Counted from the stretch's first letter, positions 3,081 through 33,498 are shown. The stretch is 33,498 nucleotides of DNA from a virus (IMGVR_UViG_2711768056_000010), one strand, 5' to 3'. A program made the numbers and translations. Notes: generated from the sequence alone by a model not told the origin.

Positions 3081-3562
3081 GACAGCAGCCCTCCCACCGT
3101 TTTACTGATATCGCTTAAGGCAGACGTTGCCGTGTCCTGCAAATTATTCAGTTGCGCACTGAGATCACCGAACATATCGGACAGGGATTCATCCACTCGT
3201 TTGAGCGACAGGGTGAACTCAATCCGGCGCGGCATACCGTCGCGGAAAAACTCCGTTTTAGTCTGATTCAGTCCCTCAATCACATACATGCCGTAAATCG
3301 TGCCGCTGCCTTCAATCAGGGGCCATGCTTTCCCCTGTTCTGCCATCTGCTCCAGTGCCAGCAACGACAGCCTGCCGCCTGTTATTTCCGGCATAAGAAC
3401 ACCGGAAAGCGTCAGCATGTCGTTTTCCGGTCCCAGAAACTGCGTGGACGGACGTCGGTTTACCCGACTGTTTGCCGCATGTCGCCAGCTGCGTTGATAC
3501 TGCAGTTCCTGATACGGAACGGTGCGCAGCATAAACACGTACAATCCCAGCACCATCATCAT
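3077..3562 (-). CDS. U: Tail protein U
   Basis: 161 aa starting MMMVLGLYVF...; P2 gpU-like; stop overlaps D start. Confidence 0.85.
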   Translation of the reverse strand: MMMVLGLYVFMLRTVPYQELQYQRSWRHAANSRVNRRPSTQFLGPENDMLTLSGVLMPEITGGRLSLLALEQMAEQGKAWPLIEGSGTIYGMYVIEGLNQTKTEFFRDGMPRRIEFTLSLKRVDESLSDMFGDLSAQLNNLQDTATSALSDISKTVGGLLS

Positions 3563-6500
3563 GCGTCGTATCCCCCCTGATCGCTGTAGTTACTCCTGGC
3601 TTTTGCCTTCAGCCTGCGTTCACGTTCATCAAGCTGGCGTGCCACCTCCCGCGCAATATCCTGCGCACTTTGTCCTGGCTGCGTCTGAATGATGATCTGC
3701 GTCGGTGCCTCAATCCGTTGAACGAGCGGCACAGTGGCTGCGCGACTCAAAATTGCTTCTCCACCTTTCGCGGGAAGTGCCAAAGGGTGCAACGGTGGAA
3801 GCTCTGCTGGCGCGGCAGCAACGCCCATCATTCCGGCAACAACGGCAGCCAGTGCAGCTGTATTTCTCCGGCTGGTCACATTTGCCGGGCCGTTAACAAT
3901 TTCCGGCCCGTTTTCACCGACGATGCCAAACTGCCCGCGCGGGATATACCCGCCGCTGTCATACATCCCCGCAAAGCCATATCCCCATGATGGAAAACCA
4001 CCCGATGGCATCATCACTTTACCGTCTGCATTCACCGTCGCAGGTTGCTGACGCGTCACGCTTTCCGGCAGTTTTGCCTTTGCGGCCTCTTTACTGACAA
4101 TGCCGAGCTTCTCCAGCAACCAGGAAACGCCAGATTTCAGGGAGTCCAGCGGATGCATGACCATATTCAGCCCTTCCGCCAGTGCCTCCCCGAATCGCCG
4201 CCCCATTGCCGCTGCGCTCTGCAGTTCGGCAGAGGTCGACTTAACGGGCGTCAGCAGATCAGTAAACCAGCCCCACAGCGCCTGCACTTTGTCGCCAATC
4301 CACTGGAACACGGGCTTAAGCGGTTCGAACGCTGCACTGATGGGACCTGCCGCCGCTTTGAATCCTTCCACCACGCCACCGAGAAATGCGGTGATGGGTT
4401 GCCAGTATTTCCAGACAACCAGCGCCACGCCCGCCAGTGCAGTAACCACAAGACCTATCGGACTGAGCAGAGCACCTAACAGACCAGATATGGCATACAG
4501 GGCAACGCGCAGCATCGCCAGCGGGCCGGATGCGAGCACACGCAGCACCGCGCCTGCGGCAGCCAGCCCACCGCGTAGTGCTGCCAGTGGATTCATAAAC
4601 ATCACAGCAACAGCACGTAAACCGGATAATCCAGACCGCAAAAGTGCAACCGGCGCACCTGCTACAGTTTTCAGGACATTCCCCATCAGTGATACCGTGC
4701 GACGCAAAGACGACAACGGAGCAGTAAGTAAACCCGCTGCGTTGCCCGATGAAGCAAGCCCGCGTCGCAGCAGTGCCAGTGGTGCGCCAGCCAGCCAGGA
4801 CAACGCGCTGCTGGTTCGAGTTACTGCTGCCGTAACGGAAGGTAACGTTTTGATACCCAGCACAGAGAATCCCAGACGGATCACTGCCAGCGGCCCCAGC
4901 ACTGCAGCCAGCGCCACCGCTAAGGTGCCGAGGCCTACGGTAACCGCAGCCACAACAGCCACTACTTTCATCAGTGTGCCTGTCAGTTCCGGGTTAGCTT
5001 CCACCCAGCGGCGCAACGCCCCCGTGACGCTTTTCACCGTGTACAGAATATCCATCAGCGGCTGGCGCAGCGTTTCGCCCAGGCTGCTGAAGGTGTTCTG
5101 CGCTCCGGTTTTGACCAGCAACCACTGAGCAGAAAGTGAGTCTTTGTTGATGTCGGATTCTTTCTGCATCGAACCGAGCGCATCATTGCCCGCTGTCAGT
5201 TTTAGCTGGCGCTGTAGTTCCGGCAGGTTGTTTGCCAGTTTCGCCGCGTCATCGCCAAACTCTTTACCAAACAACATGGTCATGGCAGACAGACGCTTGT
5301 CCTGCGGCAGTGCGTTCACCTTCTCCAGTACACGCTGGATGGTTCCCATCGCATCCTTCGTCATCTGCTTTTCAATCACTTCAGGATTGAGTTTCAGCAG
5401 ATTCATCCCTTCAAAGAAACTCTTGCTTTGCATGGTGGCAATGGACAATTCACGCACCATCGCGTTTGCTGCACTGGCTGCAACCTCCGGCGCAGCGCCC
5501 AGTGTCAGAAAGGTGGAACCCAGTGCCGCCGCTTTACGATAATCCAGACGGTCAGCCACACCGCCCAGACGTTGCATCACATCAATGATGTCCGCCCCTT
5601 TCGACATGGCGTTATCATCCAGATAGTTCAGCGCATCGCCGAGCTGTTCAATATTGCGGGTAGGTATTTTGTAGAGCTGGGCGATTTTCCCCAGACTTTC
5701 TGACAGTTCATCCGCTGGCAGCTCAAAGGCTGTTGCCGCCTTTGCTGCCGTACTGGCGAAGGCCAGCAGGTCACGTTTCTGGTCTTCCCAGCTGTCGTCA
5801 GGGTTTGCCACGTTCATGCGCGCACCACCTTCAACCAGTGCAGCGAAGTCCACCGCACCGTTTTCCATCGGCAACTGTTCGCTGGCAGCCTTGATGGCAT
5901 CCTGCATTTCGTAAAAACGCGCAGTGCGGTTGCCATTATCGTCACGCAGACCATTGACCTGCTTTGCCACACCTTTCATGGCATCTTCCATGCTGGTATA
6001 GCTTTTTACCGCCGCCATCACTGGCGCGCCCATTGCCAGCCCTGCAGCCGTGGTGGTGGCTCCGGCTCCTGCGATACGATCGCGCACTTCAAGCCGTCTT
6101 GAGTATTGTTCTCTGGCAGCGTTCATCCGTGCCTGTTGTTCACCCAGACGTTTAAGTGCTTTTTGCTGGCCCTCCAGTGCCTGCCTTGTTTCTTCAGCAT
6201 TTTTCTTAAGTTCTCGCTGGGCACTACTGAGTTGCCTGGTATCAATCCCTGATTCTTTAAGTGCCTGACGTTGTCTCTGGACCGCCCCCAACAAGCCGTT
6301 ATAGGTCTGCTGAAGTTCCTGTACTCGTGTTTTGGCCTGACTGAATAACTTTGCCTGCGCGGCGGTTGGCCTGTTAGTGGCAGCAAATTGTGTGGCGAGT
6401 TTTGCCGCCTCTTCGCGGGCTGCGTTCAGGTTGTTGGCTGTTATGGCTAGTTGCGAGCGCGTCTTGCGAAACTCATCAATTCTGCCAGCCTGCTTATTCA

Positions 6501-7644: not shown

Positions 7645-8817
7645 TTACGCGCTGACCTGGCTGGCGAAATTCACCAGGTACTGATCGGTGATGCGCTGAC
7701 GCAGCATCAGGTTTTCAAGTGGCGGCACTGGCGTGTAGTCGTAGTCGATGGTGAGTTTTCCGGCTTTCAGCGTGTCTTTGTCGTTCACCGACTCATCCAG
7801 CCAGCAATCACCACCAATGAGATAGCCCTGACTGACCAGGCTGCGCATTTTGGCGCGGATACCTTCGATAATGTCGCGGGCCAGCGACGGGTTAAGCGGT
7901 TTATCCACCGCCCACATGTGTGCTTCTGCCATCGTGTCCATCAGCACCTGCGCCGTGCGGGTGTAGTTTTCGAAGGCAAAGAGCGGGTCATCACTCAGGC
8001 AGCGGGAACCCCAGAAGCGGAAACCGTCTTTACGCACAAGCGTGGTGACGTCGTTCTGGTTCAGCAGACCTGCATCGGTTGCCGGGTCCTGCAGATCCCA
8101 GAACACATCTGCAGAAATTCCGGTGACACCGTTCACGCCCACGTTGGACAGGCTTTTGTGCCATCCGGTCTGCTCGTCAATTTTGGCGCGCAGACCAAGC
8201 GCACGGGCGGTGGCATATGCCGTTGCTTCGGCATTCAGCACCGTGTCCCAGCCAGTAAAGTCAGGCCAGATCAGCATCCCTTCGCGCTGGCTGAAGTTTT
8301 CGCGGTAAGTGATCGCCTCCTGCACTGTCTTGCAGCCATACGCTGACAGGTAAGCAAATCCACGCAGGCTTTGCGCCACGCTCAGCAACTCAGTAGCTAC
8401 CGCCTTGGTGTCGTGGCCTGGCACGCCGAGAATGCGCGGTTTAACGCCGAGCTGTGACTGGGCAGATAACAGGGCTTTCATACCTGTTTTTTTACCTTCA
8501 GCAGTCACTGCGCCGATGATATTGGTCGTGGTTTCGTCTTCCGTTTCACCCTGCGGCACACGCACAACAATGGTCACGGGTTTTGCCTGGTCAGCGATGG
8601 CATCCAGCGAACGGGCCAGAGTACCTGACTCACCCGCTTTACCGCTGGCAGTCAGCACATCAGTGATCAGCACGGGTTTATTAAGAGGAAACATTTTTGC
8701 ATCGGCATCATCGCCCGTGCAGACCATACCCACGATGGCGGTGCTCACCGTGGTAATAGATCGGGTGCCTTCGTTGACTTCAACAACGCGCACCCCGTGG
8801 TGGTAATCCTGAGCCAT
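7645..8817 (-). CDS. FI: Contractile tail sheath protein FI
   Basis: 390 aa; P2 FI-like; ATG at 8817. Confidence 0.9.
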
Positions 8818-8893
8818 AGTGGCGAACCTCCTGATTGGATTAGGCTTCGCCCTATGTTGAAGTGATTGTGCCTGACAAACAGCTAAGCGCAGT

Positions 8894-8911
8894 TGTGTCG
8901 TTATTCACACA
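8894..8911 (-). promoter_or_regulatory. Candidate Ogr-dependent late promoter element (TGT-N12-ACA) upstream of FI
   Basis: TGTGTCGTTATTCACACA dyad about 80 bp upstream of the FI start, matching the P2 late-promoter activator-site pattern. Confidence 0.5.
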
Positions 8912-8959
8912 AAATAACGGTATTTGTCTGCTTGCAGGGATAATCAACATAATGCTGAT

Positions 8960-9526
8960 TCAGGGGGATTCATTGATCTTATTTGCCGGAAATTTTCTAT
9001 AAATGGTAGAAACGCCTACATCAAAAATCAGTGCAATACGCTGTCTTGATTCTCCGGCCTCGAGTAAACGCCCAATCTGTGCCCACTGTTCGGTGGTCAA
9101 CTTAGGACGGCGTCCACCTACTCTGCCTTTGGCACGAGCTGCAGCCAGCCCTGCCCTGGTACGTTCAACTATCAGTTCGCGTTCCATTTCAGCCAGGGCA
9201 CCCATGACATGAAAAAAGAAACGGCCCATTGGGGTACTGGTATCAATACTGTCAGTCAGGCTTCTGAAATTCACACCACGCTGGCGCAACTCTTCTATCA
9301 GCGTAACAAGATGCCGCATACTGCGCCCCAACCTGTCCAGCTTCCAGACAACCAGCGTGTCTCCTGCCGATAGTGTCCTGAGTAGTTTTTTCAGCCCCGG
9401 TCTGTCGGACTTAATGCCACTGATTTTGTCCTCAAAAATCCGCTCACATCCCGCGCAGTTCAGTGCATTACGTTGCAAATCGGTGTTCTGGTCATTTGTT
9501 GACACGCGTACATAGCCAATAAGCAT
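8960..9526 (-). CDS. Serine DNA invertase (Hin/Gin/Cin/Pin family)
   Basis: MLIGYVRVSTNDQ...GDTLVVWKLDRLGRS...C-terminal HTH; ORF-track TTG start trimmed to ATG at 9526 with AGGGGA Shine-Dalgarno sequence. Confidence 0.9.
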   Translation of the reverse strand: MLIGYVRVSTNDQNTDLQRNALNCAGCERIFEDKISGIKSDRPGLKKLLRTLSAGDTLVVWKLDRLGRSMRHLVTLIEELRQRGVNFRSLTDSIDTSTPMGRFFFHVMGALAEMERELIVERTRAGLAAARAKGRVGGRRPKLTTEQWAQIGRLLEAGESRQRIALIFDVGVSTIYRKFPANKINESP

Positions 9527-9581
9527 GATCAATCCCCTGAATAAAAACCGGGGATGATGCCAGTTAGCCGTTATCTCTGCA

Positions 9582-9607
9582 TTTTCATAAACGTTCCTAT
9601 TCTGGTT
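9582..9607. other. Candidate Hin-family recombination site (one consensus half-site) between invertase and tail-fibre genes
   Basis: TTTTCATAAACG-TT-CCTATTCTGGTT; left half fits the TTnTCnnAAACC half-site pattern recalled for hix/gix/cix/pix; right half is diverged. Confidence 0.35.
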
Positions 9608-10091
9608 TTTCTGGCCACACTGGCTTTGACGTATCGACGCGCATCAGTAAGACCCGGTATTTTTTCCATTCTGACAAAGCGGCGGTTTCGTCTTCTGTCG
9701 CTATTCCCGCATCAACCGCATCCTGCCGCCATGCAATTTCAGAATCAGCTTTCAGCCTCAGGCTTGCCTTCATAGCCTCTGAATCAGCGATTAACTCGCT
9801 CTGCGATTTTCGATACTCGACCAGTTTTCCACCGATTAATCGCTGTTTATCTGTATCAATCGTTTCAGCATTAATCTCCACCACATAGAAGCCAGCAGGG
9901 TCAGGAAGGCTGGAAACATCGCGTGTAAACGCTGAAATACGGCCGTCATCGTCGTAGAGGATTTTTAGTGTATCTTCAGCAAAGTTATTCTGTTGCTCAT
10001 ACCAGTCGCCGTCTGCGTTTCTGGAATAGCTGACAGTGCCATATTTCAGATTATCTGGTGTGTAACGTTCAAATTTTTTACTGAGTGACAT
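9597..10091 (-). CDS. G: Tail fibre assembly protein
   Basis: 164 aa; P2 G/Tfa-like; start overlaps the end of H. Confidence 0.85.
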   Translation of the reverse strand: MSLSKKFERYTPDNLKYGTVSYSRNADGDWYEQQNNFAEDTLKILYDDDGRISAFTRDVSSLPDPAGFYVVEINAETIDTDKQRLIGGKLVEYRKSQSELIADSEAMKASLRLKADSEIAWRQDAVDAGIATEDETAALSEWKKYRVLLMRVDTSKPVWPEKPE

Positions 10092-11745
10092 TGACCCATG
10101 CTCCGTTAATGTAAGCCTGAAGAGTTGCGACTTTTACTTTGTTAAGTACCCACGCACCACCACCTGGCGTCGGGGTGATATAAATACCCACAACCATTTC
10201 ACTAGTTGTGAAATTCATCCAGGCATCTGCAGTCGTAACAGTTACTTCTCGGGGCGCAGAAAGGCGCAATGCTGAAACCGACTCGCCAGCCAGAGCCATT
10301 GTCCCTGCTTTATCTGGGATGATAATTGCCTTACCGTTAATCCCTGTAATGTTCGCCTGGTTGTTCATGGAATAAATACCAACACGGACAATATTATTGC
10401 TGTCCGTAACCTCTAATCCGTATCTGCATGAAAGTGCATCAGATAACGACTGTTTCATGGTGGCGTCTGTAATGACGTAGTTTCCTTTCGGTTGCAATTT
10501 ATCAATACCGAAAGCGGCTTTAACCCCATCAACAGTTGTTTGACCTGTCCCCCCTTGTGTGACAGGTAGAGCGATAGCGGCTCCGGTGTCGTTATTCCAC
10601 ATTCCCCAACTGGTGTTCGACACCAGGAGAAATTTTTTCAAATCAGGAGAGAAAATCTTCGTGGATACAGGGTCGGGTTTAATGGTCTGCAATCCAAGGT
10701 ATGTGAGAAGACCAGCTACATCCTTTCCACTCAAATTGGTAAGCGTATTGTCCAGCGGTTGTTTACCTGCCAGCGCATTAAGCATTGTCGTGGCAAAGTT
10801 CGGATCATTCCCCAGTGCCGCCGCCAGTTCGTTCAGTGTATCCAGTGCAGCAGGTGCAGAACCCACCATTCCTGCAATCGCCGATTTCACAAAAGCCGTA
10901 GTGGCAATCTGTGTATTGTTGACCGACTGCGCCGCCGTGGGGGCTGTTGGCGTTCCGGTGAGTGCCGGACTCGACAACGGTGCTTTAAGTGCCAGCGCAT
11001 TGTTAATGGTGGTACTGAAATTCGGATCATTGTTAATGGCTGCGGCTATTTCTTTCAGCGTGTCCAGCGTGGCTGGCGCACCATTAATAAGGGCCGTCAG
11101 TGCCGCCTGTACAAACGCAGTGGTCGCAACCTGCGTGGTATTATTCCCCGCCGCTGGCGTTGGCGCTTTGGGGGTTCCGGTAAATGTCGGGCTGGCTTTT
11201 GGCGCGTACTGTGAATGCGGGTCCGGTGCGGCAAGATGTTTTGCCATCTGATCATCCGCGTACACCTTCAGCTCCAGTGCCTTGTCATCCACATACTTGC
11301 GGGTTGCCAGCACTACAGCAGGGTCGATTTTCAGGGTGATATTGTCCGTGCTGCTGGTAATCAGCACCATGCGCACGGTCTGAGTGCGCCCGCTACCTTC
11401 AGCCAGTTGCGGCTTATAGCTTTCCGGGCAGTTGCCCACGGCAATCAATGCCCCGGACTCATCAAACAAGCCCACTTCACGTATCCACCAACCGCCCTCG
11501 TTTTCAGGGATCACCTGTTCGGCAATAATCTGGCTGCTGTTCTGCGGGTCGATATAAAGCATATTCAGCGCAGCCCGGCGTTTCTCATTTACCAGTGCCG
11601 TCTGCTTTGCGTCCGGCGTTGGCAATACTCCACCGCCATCGCCCACCGCCATATGGGTAATTTTTAGCGGCACACCGAGCGCGGCGGCGCTGGCAAGTTT
11701 CGCCGCGCCAATATCCGTCAGCAGGGTATAAAATTTTGTGCTCAT
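10078..11745 (-). CDS. H: Tail fibre protein H
   Basis: 555 aa; N-terminus MSTKF...MAVGDGGG...SYKPQLAEGSGR matches P2 H; internal repeats PALTGTPTAP...NNTQIATTAFV...LNELAAALGNDPNFATTM. Confidence 0.9.
   Translation of the reverse strand: MSTKFYTLLTDIGAAKLASAAALGVPLKITHMAVGDGGGVLPTPDAKQTALVNEKRRAALNMLYIDPQNSSQIIAEQVIPENEGGWWIREVGLFDESGALIAVGNCPESYKPQLAEGSGRTQTVRMVLITSSTDNITLKIDPAVVLATRKYVDDKALELKVYADDQMAKHLAAPDPHSQYAPKASPTFTGTPKAPTPAAGNNTTQVATTAFVQAALTALINGAPATLDTLKEIAAAINNDPNFSTTINNALALKAPLSSPALTGTPTAPTAAQSVNNTQIATTAFVKSAIAGMVGSAPAALDTLNELAAALGNDPNFATTMLNALAGKQPLDNTLTNLSGKDVAGLLTYLGLQTIKPDPVSTKIFSPDLKKFLLVSNTSWGMWNNDTGAAIALPVTQGGTGQTTVDGVKAAFGIDKLQPKGNYVITDATMKQSLSDALSCRYGLEVTDSNNIVRVGIYSMNNQANITGINGKAIIIPDKAGTMALAGESVSALRLSAPREVTVTTADAWMNFTTSEMVVGIYITPTPGGGAWVLNKVKVATLQAYINGAWVNVTQ
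10684..10709. other. Candidate Hin-family recombination site (one consensus half-site) inside H
   Basis: GGTCTGCAATCC-AA-GGTATGTGAGAA; right half fits the half-site pattern; lies at the codons for the conserved LTYLGLQTI junction between constant and variable H regions. Confidence 0.3.
10756..11190 (-). repeat. Two tandem copies of an approximately 72-codon repeat within H
   Basis: Protein segments about aa 186-255 and 259-329 are near-duplicates (PTxTGTPxAPT...NNTxxATTAFV...LDTLxExAAAxxNDPNF.TT). Confidence 0.7.
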
Positions 11746-12347
11746 GGATTCACTCTCATTGTGTCAATAACATGGACCGCCCCGCCTTCATGCGCGGTGC
11801 CACCGGAAATAATCGTTTCGTTGATATACGGATAGATCGTGATTTCTTCGCCAAGATAGCTGGCGGCTCCCACCCAATGCGGGCCGCTGGTCTGCAGATT
11901 GATGGACATGCCGATCATGTGGCGGCTACATGGTTTGGCATCGCTTATCAGTCGCTCAAGTTCCAGATAGGTATCTTCAGTGATGCCCTGGTCCTGCACG
12001 CCGATATCCAGGCGAAACGTGCCCGGTGTTTCTCCGGTCTGCCACCACTCAATAATGCGGATCAGGAATCCGAACGGTTCCACCACCCGCCGCACGGCAC
12101 TGGTGGTTCCTTTATGCTGATGAATATAAAAAGCATCCTTCACTACCTGGCGTTTGACGCTTTCTGTCCAGCCCTCGTCCCAGCGATCCACAGAGAACGC
12201 CCAGGCGAGATAAGGCAGGAAGCTGACCGGACAGGTAGCCGGATTCCACAAGTCACGCAGCGGCACCTGCAAATCAGAAATCCCGCTACAGGTTTGCGCC
12301 AGTCGGCGCTCCAGTGAAGTTGAACCCGGTGGCAGCAGACTATTCAT
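11742..12347 (-). CDS. I: Baseplate assembly protein I
   Basis: 201 aa, P2 gene order; GGAGG Shine-Dalgarno sequence; start overlaps J stop. Confidence 0.85.
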   Translation of the reverse strand: MNSLLPPGSTSLERRLAQTCSGISDLQVPLRDLWNPATCPVSFLPYLAWAFSVDRWDEGWTESVKRQVVKDAFYIHQHKGTTSAVRRVVEPFGFLIRIIEWWQTGETPGTFRLDIGVQDQGITEDTYLELERLISDAKPCSRHMIGMSINLQTSGPHWVGAASYLGEEITIYPYINETIISGGTAHEGGAVHVIDTMRVNP

Positions 12348-31245: not shown

Positions 31246-32268
31246 ATGACTGTCAGAAAACAGCCAAACGGTAAATGGTTGTGCGAGTGCTATCCCAATG
31301 GACGCAATGGCAAGCGCGTGCGTAAGCAATTTGCTACGAAAGGCGAAGCCATTGCTTTTGAAAGCTTCACAATGGAAGAGGTAAATAAGAAACCTTGGCT
31401 AGGAGAAAAAGAAGATCGGCGACAACTGTCAGAAGTGATTGAGCAGTGGTATTCCCTGTATGGTCAGACACTCGCTGACCCAAAGCGTTTGATGGCAAAA
31501 TTAAAAATTATTTGTACCGGTCTCGGCAATCCTATTGCCTCGGAACTGACAGCAGGTGATTTCACAAAATATCGGGAAGCCAGATTAAAGGGGGAGGTCA
31601 AAAATGAAGACGGTGTTTTCATGTCCCCCGTAAAACCTCGCACGGTTAATCTTGAGCAGCGTAACCTGTCATCTGTATTCGGCACATTGAAAAAACTAGG
31701 ACACTGGTCAGCACCAAACCCATTGGCAGGGCTTCCAACATTTAAAATTGCTGAAGGTGAATTGGCATTCCTATCTCAGGAGGAAATTAAACGCCTACTT
31801 GACGCCTGCGCAAACTCTCAAAATCCAAGTCTGTTGATGATCGCAAAGGTATGCTTGGCTACCGGCGCGCGCTGGAGTGAAGCGGAAAACTTACAGGGCC
31901 ACCAATTATCAAAATACCGTATTACCTATACAAAGACGAAAGGAAAGAAAAATAGGACAGTACCGATATCTCAGGCTCTCTATGACGAACTCCCCAAAAA
32001 CAGAGGGAAGTTATTCACGCCATGCAGAAAGGCTTTTGAACGAGCGGTCAAACGGGCTGGTATTGAACTGCCTGAAGGTCAGTGTACCCATGTTCTGCGC
32101 CATACATTCGCCAGTCATTTTATGATGAACGGTGGAAACATACTCGTTTTGAAAGATATTCTTGGGCATTCAGATATTAAAATGACTATGATTTATGCAC
32201 ATTTTTCCCCTGATCATTTAGAAGATGCAGTAACTAAAAATCCACTTTATTCGCTATTAAAGGACTAA
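31246..32268 (+). CDS. int: Tyrosine integrase (P2/186 family)
   Basis: 340 aa with C-terminal catalytic motifs (...HVLRHTFASHF...LGHSDIKMTMIYAH...). Confidence 0.9.
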   Translation: MTVRKQPNGKWLCECYPNGRNGKRVRKQFATKGEAIAFESFTMEEVNKKPWLGEKEDRRQLSEVIEQWYSLYGQTLADPKRLMAKLKIICTGLGNPIASELTAGDFTKYREARLKGEVKNEDGVFMSPVKPRTVNLEQRNLSSVFGTLKKLGHWSAPNPLAGLPTFKIAEGELAFLSQEEIKRLLDACANSQNPSLLMIAKVCLATGARWSEAENLQGHQLSKYRITYTKTKGKKNRTVPISQALYDELPKNRGKLFTPCRKAFERAVKRAGIELPEGQCTHVLRHTFASHFMMNGGNILVLKDILGHSDIKMTMIYAHFSPDHLEDAVTKNPLYSLLKD

Positions 32269-32271
32269 ATA

Positions 32272-33498
32272 ATGACTCTCCATCAAACTTTATCTAAAGA
32301 ATTAAGAGATTTATTTGTTAGTATTTTAAGACGTTCTCTTTTTCGCCCCCCCATCAAAATAAATGGGGATATAGTCTCTGATTTTTCAAACAGATGCGAG
32401 CAGTTCAAAGAGTGCCTAAATGAATACATTTGTGATAACAATAATGCTGCTTCCGAAAGAGTTAAGCCAAGAATTAAAACTATTGAAAAAATACAACATG
32501 GATTAACTAATTCTCTTAAAGCATTTTTATCTGGCGACATTAAAGGAGCCTACGATATTTTTGATGAAGTTTTATCATACCCTACTGTCTATAGACATCT
32601 AAGAAGAATATCCATTCCACTAAAAGAAATATGTAATAAGCACAAGCCTTTATTCAGGGTAAGAAAGTCAGATAGACCAGTCGTAACAAGAAAGGAAATA
32701 TTTCATATCCCATTCACTCATCGACATCTTGTCAATGCTCAACGCTACTCCGTTGCAGGTTTGCCATGCCTTTACTTAGGTTCATCTCTCTATATATGCT
32801 GGCAGGAAATGGATAAACCTGACTTTGATAAATTATACCTATCATCATTTATATCTTGGGATGAGGAATCTTATATTTTAAATTTAGCTGCAGATTTTCT
32901 TTACAGTAGAACCGCTAAAGGATTTTACGGTGATATTAGTAATAGAGATAACCTCATTAAAATATCATATTTAACTTTATGGCCTCTGATAATTGCATGT
33001 AATTATTTAAAGCAGAATGAAAACTCTTCATTTAATCAAGAATATATCATCCCAAATTTGTTAATGCAGTGGATAAGTCGACTTGAAGATAGAGCTATTG
33101 TCGGCATAGCATATCGCTCAACAAAAATAAAAAGAACAGCAAACTCACACTTAGCAACTAATGTCGTCTTGCCTCCAAAAGTAAACTATGAAGATACAAT
33201 CACAAAACCTTATTGTCAGAAACTATTGTCAATGTTTGAGTTTACTCAACCTGTATCATGGCAGGTTTTGAAAACATTAGACTATAAAATTGATAATGAA
33301 ATAAATCAAGAGCAAGAAAAAGCAATTCATTTACTAAAACAGAAAGAAAGATTAAGTGGCATACAAGATTTAAATGAAGATCTTATAAACCTTTATCCTT
33401 TAACAGACTTCTACAAGCTAGAACAGTGCATGGATCGCCTGCTGCAGTATGATGTACTTGAGATAAAATCTGGCGGCACTTTGGCGGCAGAGCATTAA
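32272..33498 (+). CDS. Hypothetical cargo protein with RES-like motif
   Basis: 408 aa, strongly AT-rich; starts 4 nt after int stop with AAGGA Shine-Dalgarno sequence; RYSVAGLPCLYLGSSLYICWQE resembles the Arg...Glu...Ser core of RES domains; stop codon is the last triplet of the window. Confidence 0.55.
   Translation: MTLHQTLSKELRDLFVSILRRSLFRPPIKINGDIVSDFSNRCEQFKECLNEYICDNNNAASERVKPRIKTIEKIQHGLTNSLKAFLSGDIKGAYDIFDEVLSYPTVYRHLRRISIPLKEICNKHKPLFRVRKSDRPVVTRKEIFHIPFTHRHLVNAQRYSVAGLPCLYLGSSLYICWQEMDKPDFDKLYLSSFISWDEESYILNLAADFLYSRTAKGFYGDISNRDNLIKISYLTLWPLIIACNYLKQNENSSFNQEYIIPNLLMQWISRLEDRAIVGIAYRSTKIKRTANSHLATNVVLPPKVNYEDTITKPYCQKLLSMFEFTQPVSWQVLKTLDYKIDNEINQEQEKAIHLLKQKERLSGIQDLNEDLINLYPLTDFYKLEQCMDRLLQYDVLEIKSGGTLAAEH

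Follow-up and report, generated by a model that had tools for sequence, protein, structure and literature searches.

The virus sequence IMGVR_UViG_2711768056_000010 (33,498 nucleotides, nt; called the window below, meaning the whole stretch analysed) contains a P2-like prophage, and the locus considered here comprises its serine DNA invertase gene, its tail-fibre assembly gene tfa, and its tail-fibre gene H, which consists of a constant part (Hc) and a variable tip (Hv). We consider it probable that this locus is a Pin-type tail-fibre inversion module in which a single Hv-tfa cassette was recently acquired in place of two, and that the module functions as a rare ON/OFF switch. A single-cassette Din segment, acquired recently and capable of ON/OFF switching at most, describes the locus better than a decayed switch does. 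The latter description, which was offered in the initial annotation, is not the best one, as the cassette is intact and portable, is found from core to core in three other backbones, and in one of these copies differs by 1 nt in 1,100.

The comparison with related prophages that carry complete invertible segments, which had been proposed as a check, shows that the sites are real. The flanks of the segment are matched in 1,768 of 5,426 complete E. coli genomes, whereas the middle segment is matched in none of these. The closest relatives (L001-L003) are 99.9% identical to the window over 8700-9595 and 10690-11900, and between these limits they carry about 1.86 kb that encodes an Hv-tfa set and an opposed tfa'-Hv' set. 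At the same positions as in the window these relatives possess complete sites, TTTTCATAAACG-TT-GGTTTGGGAGAA, which is exactly pixR, and TTCTCCCAAACC-AA-GGTATGTGAGAA, and their homology to the window breaks at the cores. The segment in 20 sampled relatives with both flanks measures 1,446-1,930 bp and never 1.1 kb; in the window it measures 1,100 bp. A search for both alternative invertase-side junctions, which served as a positive control, found the dual cassette in one orientation in 873 and in the other in 857 of the 5,426 genomes. The invertase of these relatives differs from that of the window by a single residue (I38T), and the ratio of about 1:1 therefore indicates that a near-identical invertase is active in this lineage. 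Residue 38 (region of 9414) is isoleucine in the window and threonine in L001, PinE and Gin. The whole 8700-9595 flank, including the 5' coding region of the invertase, is 99.9% identical to relatives whose dual cassette is found in both orientations.

The two sites at which the segment is bounded (sites I and H in Table 1) had been flagged from the sequence as Hin-family-like half-sites whose conserved halves face outward, and both observations hold up against curated sites. With Table 3 of PMC3241671 as the Din-site reference, the outer half of site I (CGTTTATGAAAA in H sense) agrees with that of pixR at 12 of 12 positions, and the outer half of site H with that of cixR at 9 of 12. In a position weight matrix built from 19 curated Din half-sites, the outer halves score 12.0 (site I) and 11.8 bits (site H) and belong to the top 0.01% of the 12-mers in the window, whereas the inner halves, at -2.2 and -1.6 bits, do not rise above background, as 4-5% of the window's 12-mers score as high. 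The TT and AA cores are inverted and mutually compatible, site H lies inside H at the constant/variable junction, and site I falls in the interval from the tfa stop codon to the invertase start. The spacer between site I and the invertase start is similar to the pixR-pinE spacer of e14. One could assume that both half-site matches are coincidental and have nothing to do with recombination. The degenerate pattern is indeed not enriched (13 matches in the window with one mismatch allowed versus 7.9 expected; 6 of 100 shuffles reach 13), and three unrelated 12-mers elsewhere in the window outscore the two outer halves. As the pattern is not above chance, a match by itself proves nothing, and pattern counting was dropped in favour of comparative breakpoints. 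However, chance would not explain the complete agreement with the pixR outer half together with the extended similarity to the e14 pixR-pin spacer, nor the homology breakpoints that fall at the cores in comparisons with dozens of relatives, nor the complete pix sites at the same positions; these comparative data refute the explanation, and we give it practically no credence. Judged by sequence comparison, the two elements are genuine Din-family (Pin-type) crossover sites, because of their position, their complementary cores, the extended pixR-pin match, and the ends of homology in relatives at 9595/9596 and 10690-10697. A generic search for inverted repeats around the segment returned chance-level pairs only, the two sites having too little sequence in common. 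Two isolated Din-like half-sites of about 10 bits each, with an AA core at 31815-31840 (CTCTCAAAATCC-AA) and a TT core at 33380-33405 (ATCTTATAAACC-TT), were judged to be chance matches, about as many as expected.

The 1.1-kb segment is found at 96-97% identity in 4 of the 5,426 complete genomes, in every case in another backbone. In L004 and L006 the cassette resides in an e14-like prophage integrated at dusA with StfP/YmfQ-type genes, and in L005 in a Mu-like prophage with a different baseplate, beside tonB/yciI. Additional copies were recovered through IMG/VR and the protein collection, in an e14-like prophage at dusA (L007) and in Mu-like prophages (L009 and L013). All of these copies are single cassettes, with Hv fused to the constant part of its own backbone, the tfa end 1 nt from the core, and an invertase gene alongside. 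The likeness to the window ends at both core dinucleotides, and the outer halves vary between backbones. The copy in the Mu-like prophage L013, for which the public reads are ERR3970631, differs from the window by 1 nt in 1,100 between the cores, and its flanks are unrelated to those of the window. This distribution marks the core-to-core stretch of 1,100 bp as a portable module. The Hv tip had no match in one-genome-per-species genomes or in metagenomes, and as judged from these searches the cassette is rare outside E. coli collections.

The cassette appears to have been acquired recently by this P2-like backbone through site-specific exchange at the cores, with the dual cassette being replaced. 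Since both breakpoints of L013 lie at the cores and the flanks are unrelated, homologous recombination cannot place them, whereas crossover at the cores by a site-specific route explains them economically. If Din-catalysed crossovers occurred between the sites of two prophages in one host, the DNA that lies between the cores would be exchanged; two in succession would be required, and entry may have proceeded, for example, by two successive recombinations between co-resident prophages. The reciprocal product would be a Mu-like or e14-like prophage with a dual pix-type cassette between the outer halves CTCTCACAAACC and CCTTTTTTATAA. Recombination with secondary sites is expected to yield hybrid sites, one half bona fide and the other unrelated. 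Recombination by Cin at a quasi-site (cixQ) was reportedly described by Iida and Hiestand-Nauer in 1986 and 1987, and Sandmeier is said to have proposed in 1994 a model in which tail-fibre modules are exchanged at crossover sites. The boundaries of the window cassette, which fall at crossover cores across unrelated phages, fit the horizontal exchange proposed in that model. In contrast to the cixQ work and the model, the cassettes of the P2-like and the Mu-like prophage that document the exchange here are nearly identical (1 nt in 1,100), and the product is a single-cassette segment.

Several observations on assemblies touch on this cassette. In short-read assemblies it occurs as its own contig in L017 (1,098 bp) and L018 (1,069 bp); the ends of L017 lie no more than 1 nt from either core, other contigs break off 12-17 nt into Hv, and a contig end in L014 also lies near a core. 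One genome, GCA_018166695.1, contains both cassette variants. The contig breaks in L014, L017 and L018 were considered as a read-level sign of mixed orientation, but they are ambiguous, as repeats common to co-resident prophages give the same breaks.

Table 1. Genes, crossover sites and predicted features of the single-cassette segment (window coordinates).
Feature	Position	Strand	Description
Serine DNA invertase, Pin-type	8960-9526	-	188 amino acids from ATG at 9526; the mechanical open reading frame begins at TTG 9532
Site I, invertase-proximal	9582-9607		Outer half TTTTCATAAACG; TT core at 9594-9595; weak inner half CCTATTCTGGTT, overlapping the tfa stop codon
Single Hv-tfa cassette	9596-10695	-	1,100 bp, core to core; portable, potentially invertible
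Antisense-of-tfa frame	9596-9775	+	From in-silico inversion: in frame with Hc after inversion, 60 codons, then stop
tfa, tail-fibre assembly (chaperone)	9597-10091	-	164 amino acids; Pfam Caudo_TAP, E 5.5e-24; stop codon 1 nt from the core
Tail-fibre gene H	10078-11745	-	555 amino acids; Pfam Phage_tail_fib N-terminal domain
Site H, Hc/Hv junction	10684-10709		Weak inner half GGTCTGCAATCC; AA core at 10696-10697; strong outer half GGTATGTGAGAA

Open reading frames and Pfam matches identify the region as the tail module of a P2-like prophage, encoded on the minus strand, with the tail sheath gene at 7645-8817 and gene I at 11742-12347. The invertase shares 86% identity with PinE of e14, matches the Pfam domains Resolvase (E 7e-53) and HTH_7, and aligns over its whole length with Gin (structure 3uj3, E 3e-91, residues 1-183), including the YVRVST serine motif; it thus has the intact catalytic domain and C-terminal helix-turn-helix of the DNA-invertase subfamily. 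A terminator-like hairpin on the minus strand at 9546-9565 (AACTGGCATCATCCCCGGTT, followed by a run of T) separates site I from the invertase start codon and might insulate the invertase against read-through from the late operon. By translation, H divides into Hc (10698-11745) and Hv (10078-10695), joined in the peptide ...LLTYL/GLQT...; Hv has no Pfam match. Neither the open reading frames nor a tblastn search revealed a second tfa, Hv or invertase anywhere in the window, which bears out the earlier observation that the alternative set in opposite orientation is missing. An either/or switch alternates between two opposed Hv-tfa sets, and the segment holds one tfa and one Hv. Within Hc, about 106 bp are directly duplicated (10753-10858 and 10975-11080, 68% identity); the constant part of one relative, L012, is 275 amino acids long versus 349 in the window, and the number of repeats in Hc may differ between relatives. 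At the left edge of the window an open reading frame of 160 amino acids runs in, followed by the tmRNA gene ssrA at 698-1060 (Rfam 295.8 bits; tag ANDENYALAA) and then by P2-like genes; from this arrangement the prophage appears to be integrated beside ssrA.

In the scheme established for the Hin family, invertase dimers bind each 26-bp site and are joined by a Fis-bound enhancer to form the invertasome, after which the 2-bp cores are cleaved and strands are exchanged by subunit rotation (PMC3798978). In the window, the resident invertase, together with Fis and an enhancer presumably located in the invertase's own 5' coding region, would still synapse the hybrid sites and flip the segment rarely. 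At each site one subunit would be in specific contact with the outer half while the other would sit on non-cognate DNA, which should make synapsis inefficient but possible. The weak halves of the window (-2.2 and -1.6 bits) are no weaker than functional natural ones, such as the left half of hixR (-4.7 bits) and the 3' outer half of EC958 Phi2 (-0.5 bits); the right halves of the p15B mix sites score between 0 and 5 bits, and most mix sites contain a comparably poor half, with right halves of 0 to 0.8 bits. The resemblance of the hybrid sites to hixR and the mix sites suggests that they can still synapse and flip, albeit rarely. When the segment 9596-10695 is inverted in silico, Hc is followed by 60 antisense-tfa codons, giving a protein of 409 instead of 555 amino acids, and Hv-tfa is left facing away from the late operon. 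The expected junctions are TTTTCATAAACG-TT-GGATTGCAGACC and AACCAGAATAGG-AA-GGTATGTGAGAA, for which TTTTCATAAACGTTGGATTGCAGACC and AACCAGAATAGGAAGGTATGTGAGAA are diagnostic strings. With the segment flipped, the fibre would lack its receptor-binding tip, and fibre-less particles that do not adsorb would result (the OFF state). We infer that the window's own segment can undergo this inversion. The switch is probably a rare ON/OFF switch that arose as a by-product, and not an either/or host-range switch.

Direct support for the ability of single-cassette segments to invert as ON/OFF switches seems to come from a relative. Among 62 homologues of the Hv tip, which are attached to different constant parts, nearly all are fusions of 300-349 amino acids and represent the ON state. 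Two homologues of 219 amino acids, from L011 and L012, begin with a peptide from the invertase flank (MMPVSR...). The L011 protein is the silent half of a dual cassette. In L012 (E. coli GCA_014468095.1) the gene order is that of the window, sheath-invertase-segment-Hc-I, and the segment is a single cassette with 73% amino acid identity to that of the window, in flipped orientation. Its junctions, TTTTCTTAAACG-TT-GGTTTGCAAACA on the invertase side and CCTGTATAGG-AA-GGTATGCGAGAA on the Hc side, are the exact reciprocals expected of an inversion at the cores, including a very poor tfa-end half (0.3 bits), and its H is truncated to 280 amino acids (...AYLPIQV, then stop). A second assembly, P0064, has the same invertase-side junction peptide and may come from the same isolate. 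In nature, then, the window-type cassette is seen in the ON state only, and a variant cassette in the same backbone type is OFF in L012 and P0064. The suggestion in the initial annotation of an ON/OFF rather than either/or inversion thus gains support from a related single cassette, flipped at its cores with H truncated; for the window-type cassette itself no flipped copy was found. Among database instances of single cassettes, ON outnumbers OFF by about 50:1, as compared to about 1:1 for dual cassettes, which indicates that inversion of single cassettes is rare; this rarity is consistent with only one good half per site. A protein of 214 amino acids (P0065) that was considered as a further OFF isoform is better explained as a frameshifted ON gene, with a run of A5 versus A4 in the half-site.

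The interpretation of the locus as a recently acquired, rarely inverting segment has to be weighed against several points. The variant cassette of L012 has an Hv-side inner half that is nearer to the consensus (7.4 bits, versus -1.6 in the window). L012 could in principle stem from a deletion in a dual cassette rather than from an inversion; however, a simple deletion in an L011-like dual cassette is unsupported, as the tfa 3' ends cease to agree some 19 nt short of the core. The L012-type cassette is absent from the complete E. coli genomes, among which no ON partner in the same backbone was thus found. The window-type cassette has never been seen flipped; in about 38 protein clusters it is joined to a constant part. 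The OFF fusion peptide predicted for the window has no match in 5.8 billion protein clusters. With regard to its origin, an unsampled P2-like donor that already held the cassette could have supplied it by homology in the flanks, which would push the site-specific event further back.

An alternative explanation is that the segment is a locked relic: the sites would be dead in the absence of inner half-sites and the cassette would be permanently ON, with the invertase still intact only owing to the recency of the replacement or to a role in trans at other invertible segments. If this were the case, then inner halves at background, window-type cassettes that are all fused in the ON state, a predicted OFF peptide that is missing from the protein collection, and the skew of 50:1 in place of 1:1 would all be expected. 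The invertase is also broken in some single-cassette relatives; of those integrated at dusA, L006 carries an annotated internal stop (3364-3927) and L007 is truncated after about 80 codons (5175-5420). However, L012 recombined exactly at the core of a site whose tfa-end half is just as poor, functional natural sites with equally weak halves exist, and the core-to-core exchange between unrelated backbones at a divergence of 1 nt indicates that hybrid sites were substrates very recently. We therefore regard a permanently locked relic as unlikely, although it deserves to be taken seriously. The term locked, which had also been considered earlier, may still apply to this window in particular, where the Hv-side inner half is weaker than that of L012 and no flipped copy of the cassette type was found.

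At the other extreme, the single-cassette layout could have been selected as a programmed ON/OFF phase variation, with some lysogens, for example, releasing fibre-less particles or silencing their fibre genes. The recurrence of a single cassette with an invertase in several backbones, also with another Hv type (L020), and the existence of one OFF isoform (L012) would fit this idea. However, the OFF state is a truncated fibre with a nonsense tail whose benefit is not apparent, it is seen very rarely in assemblies, the weak inner halves resemble by-products of joining cassettes more than they do tuned sites, and relatives tolerate invertase pseudogenes. We consider this explanation highly improbable, and continue to prefer rare inversion as a by-product of cassette acquisition.

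L020 (IMGVR_UViG_2874309032_000003) is a P2-like phage with a single cassette whose Hv is of another type (35% identity) and whose tfa is tfaP-like; the end of this tfa, ...CCAGAATAGG-AA-CGTTTACGAAAA, lies beside an invertase that is 85% identical to that of the window. The single-cassette layout is therefore not confined to one tip type. A tfa-end motif, ...ATAGG-AA-CCTTTGA(A/T)AGAA, is also present at the tfa 3' ends of P2-like phages that have no invertase (L019/L008, L022 and L029). A terminator-like hairpin comes next, with the sheath gene after it in L019 and L029, and the motif includes a half-site-like sequence (reverse complement TTCTATCAAAGG). The motif is left over from a lost invertase module, or else it is a conserved end of the cassette.

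Among the known systems, the P segment of e14 with Pin (E. coli K-12 pinE, pixL and pixR) is similar to the window in its invertase, in the site I outer half and spacer, which match pixR and its flank, in the placement of one site at the constant/variable junction of the fibre and the other by the invertase, and in the orientation of the invertase relative to the fibre operon. The two differ in that the e14 segment contains a pair of opposed cassettes (stfP'-tfaP and tfaE-stfE') and both of its 26-bp sites are complete, with the inner half TTCTCCCAAACC in common, whereas the window has one cassette, two non-consensus inner halves and a P2-like backbone. The G segment of Mu with Gin and the C segment of P1 with Cin likewise combine a Din invertase and 26-bp sites with a 2-bp core, one of them at an Sc/Sv-type junction, with co-inversion of tfa and the tip; there, however, two functional tips alternate, whereas the window would alternate a functional tip with a truncated fibre. 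The mix sites of p15B Min and Salmonella hixR resemble the window sites in having one consensus half and one very weak half, but in those systems the strong half is repeated inside the invertible DNA, whereas in the window it is the backbone that contributes the strong halves and the cassette the weak ones. EC958 Phi2 is also a P2-like E. coli prophage with a Din invertase and active sites with poor outer halves (TCCTCAATTACC and GAGAGATAAACG), and inversion at these sites was observed in PacBio reads (PMC4134206). In contrast to the window, it has a dual cassette of 2,067 bp and consensus inner halves.

A receptor-binding module has passed between unrelated prophage families nearly without divergence, and its limits coincide exactly with the cores of this locus. 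The locus thereby supports the long-standing idea that invertase sites promote the horizontal exchange of fibre tips, and it indicates that one good half-site is enough for a site to take part. It is quite possible, though short of probable, that Din sites with one consensus half serve as portable cassette junctions at which invertases drive the exchange of Hv-tfa cassettes among unrelated co-resident P2-like, Mu-like and e14-like prophages, a market for fibre tips. The single-cassette ON/OFF segments may then represent intermediates between dual-cassette switches, with the P2-like/Mu-like pair that differs by 1 nt in 1,100 as a fresh example. The window presents a single-cassette form of the textbook either/or machinery, in which inversion can only turn the fibre off. 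This bears on the prediction of host range from phage genomes, on the annotation of orphan invertases, and on the engineering of fibre swaps with serine invertases.

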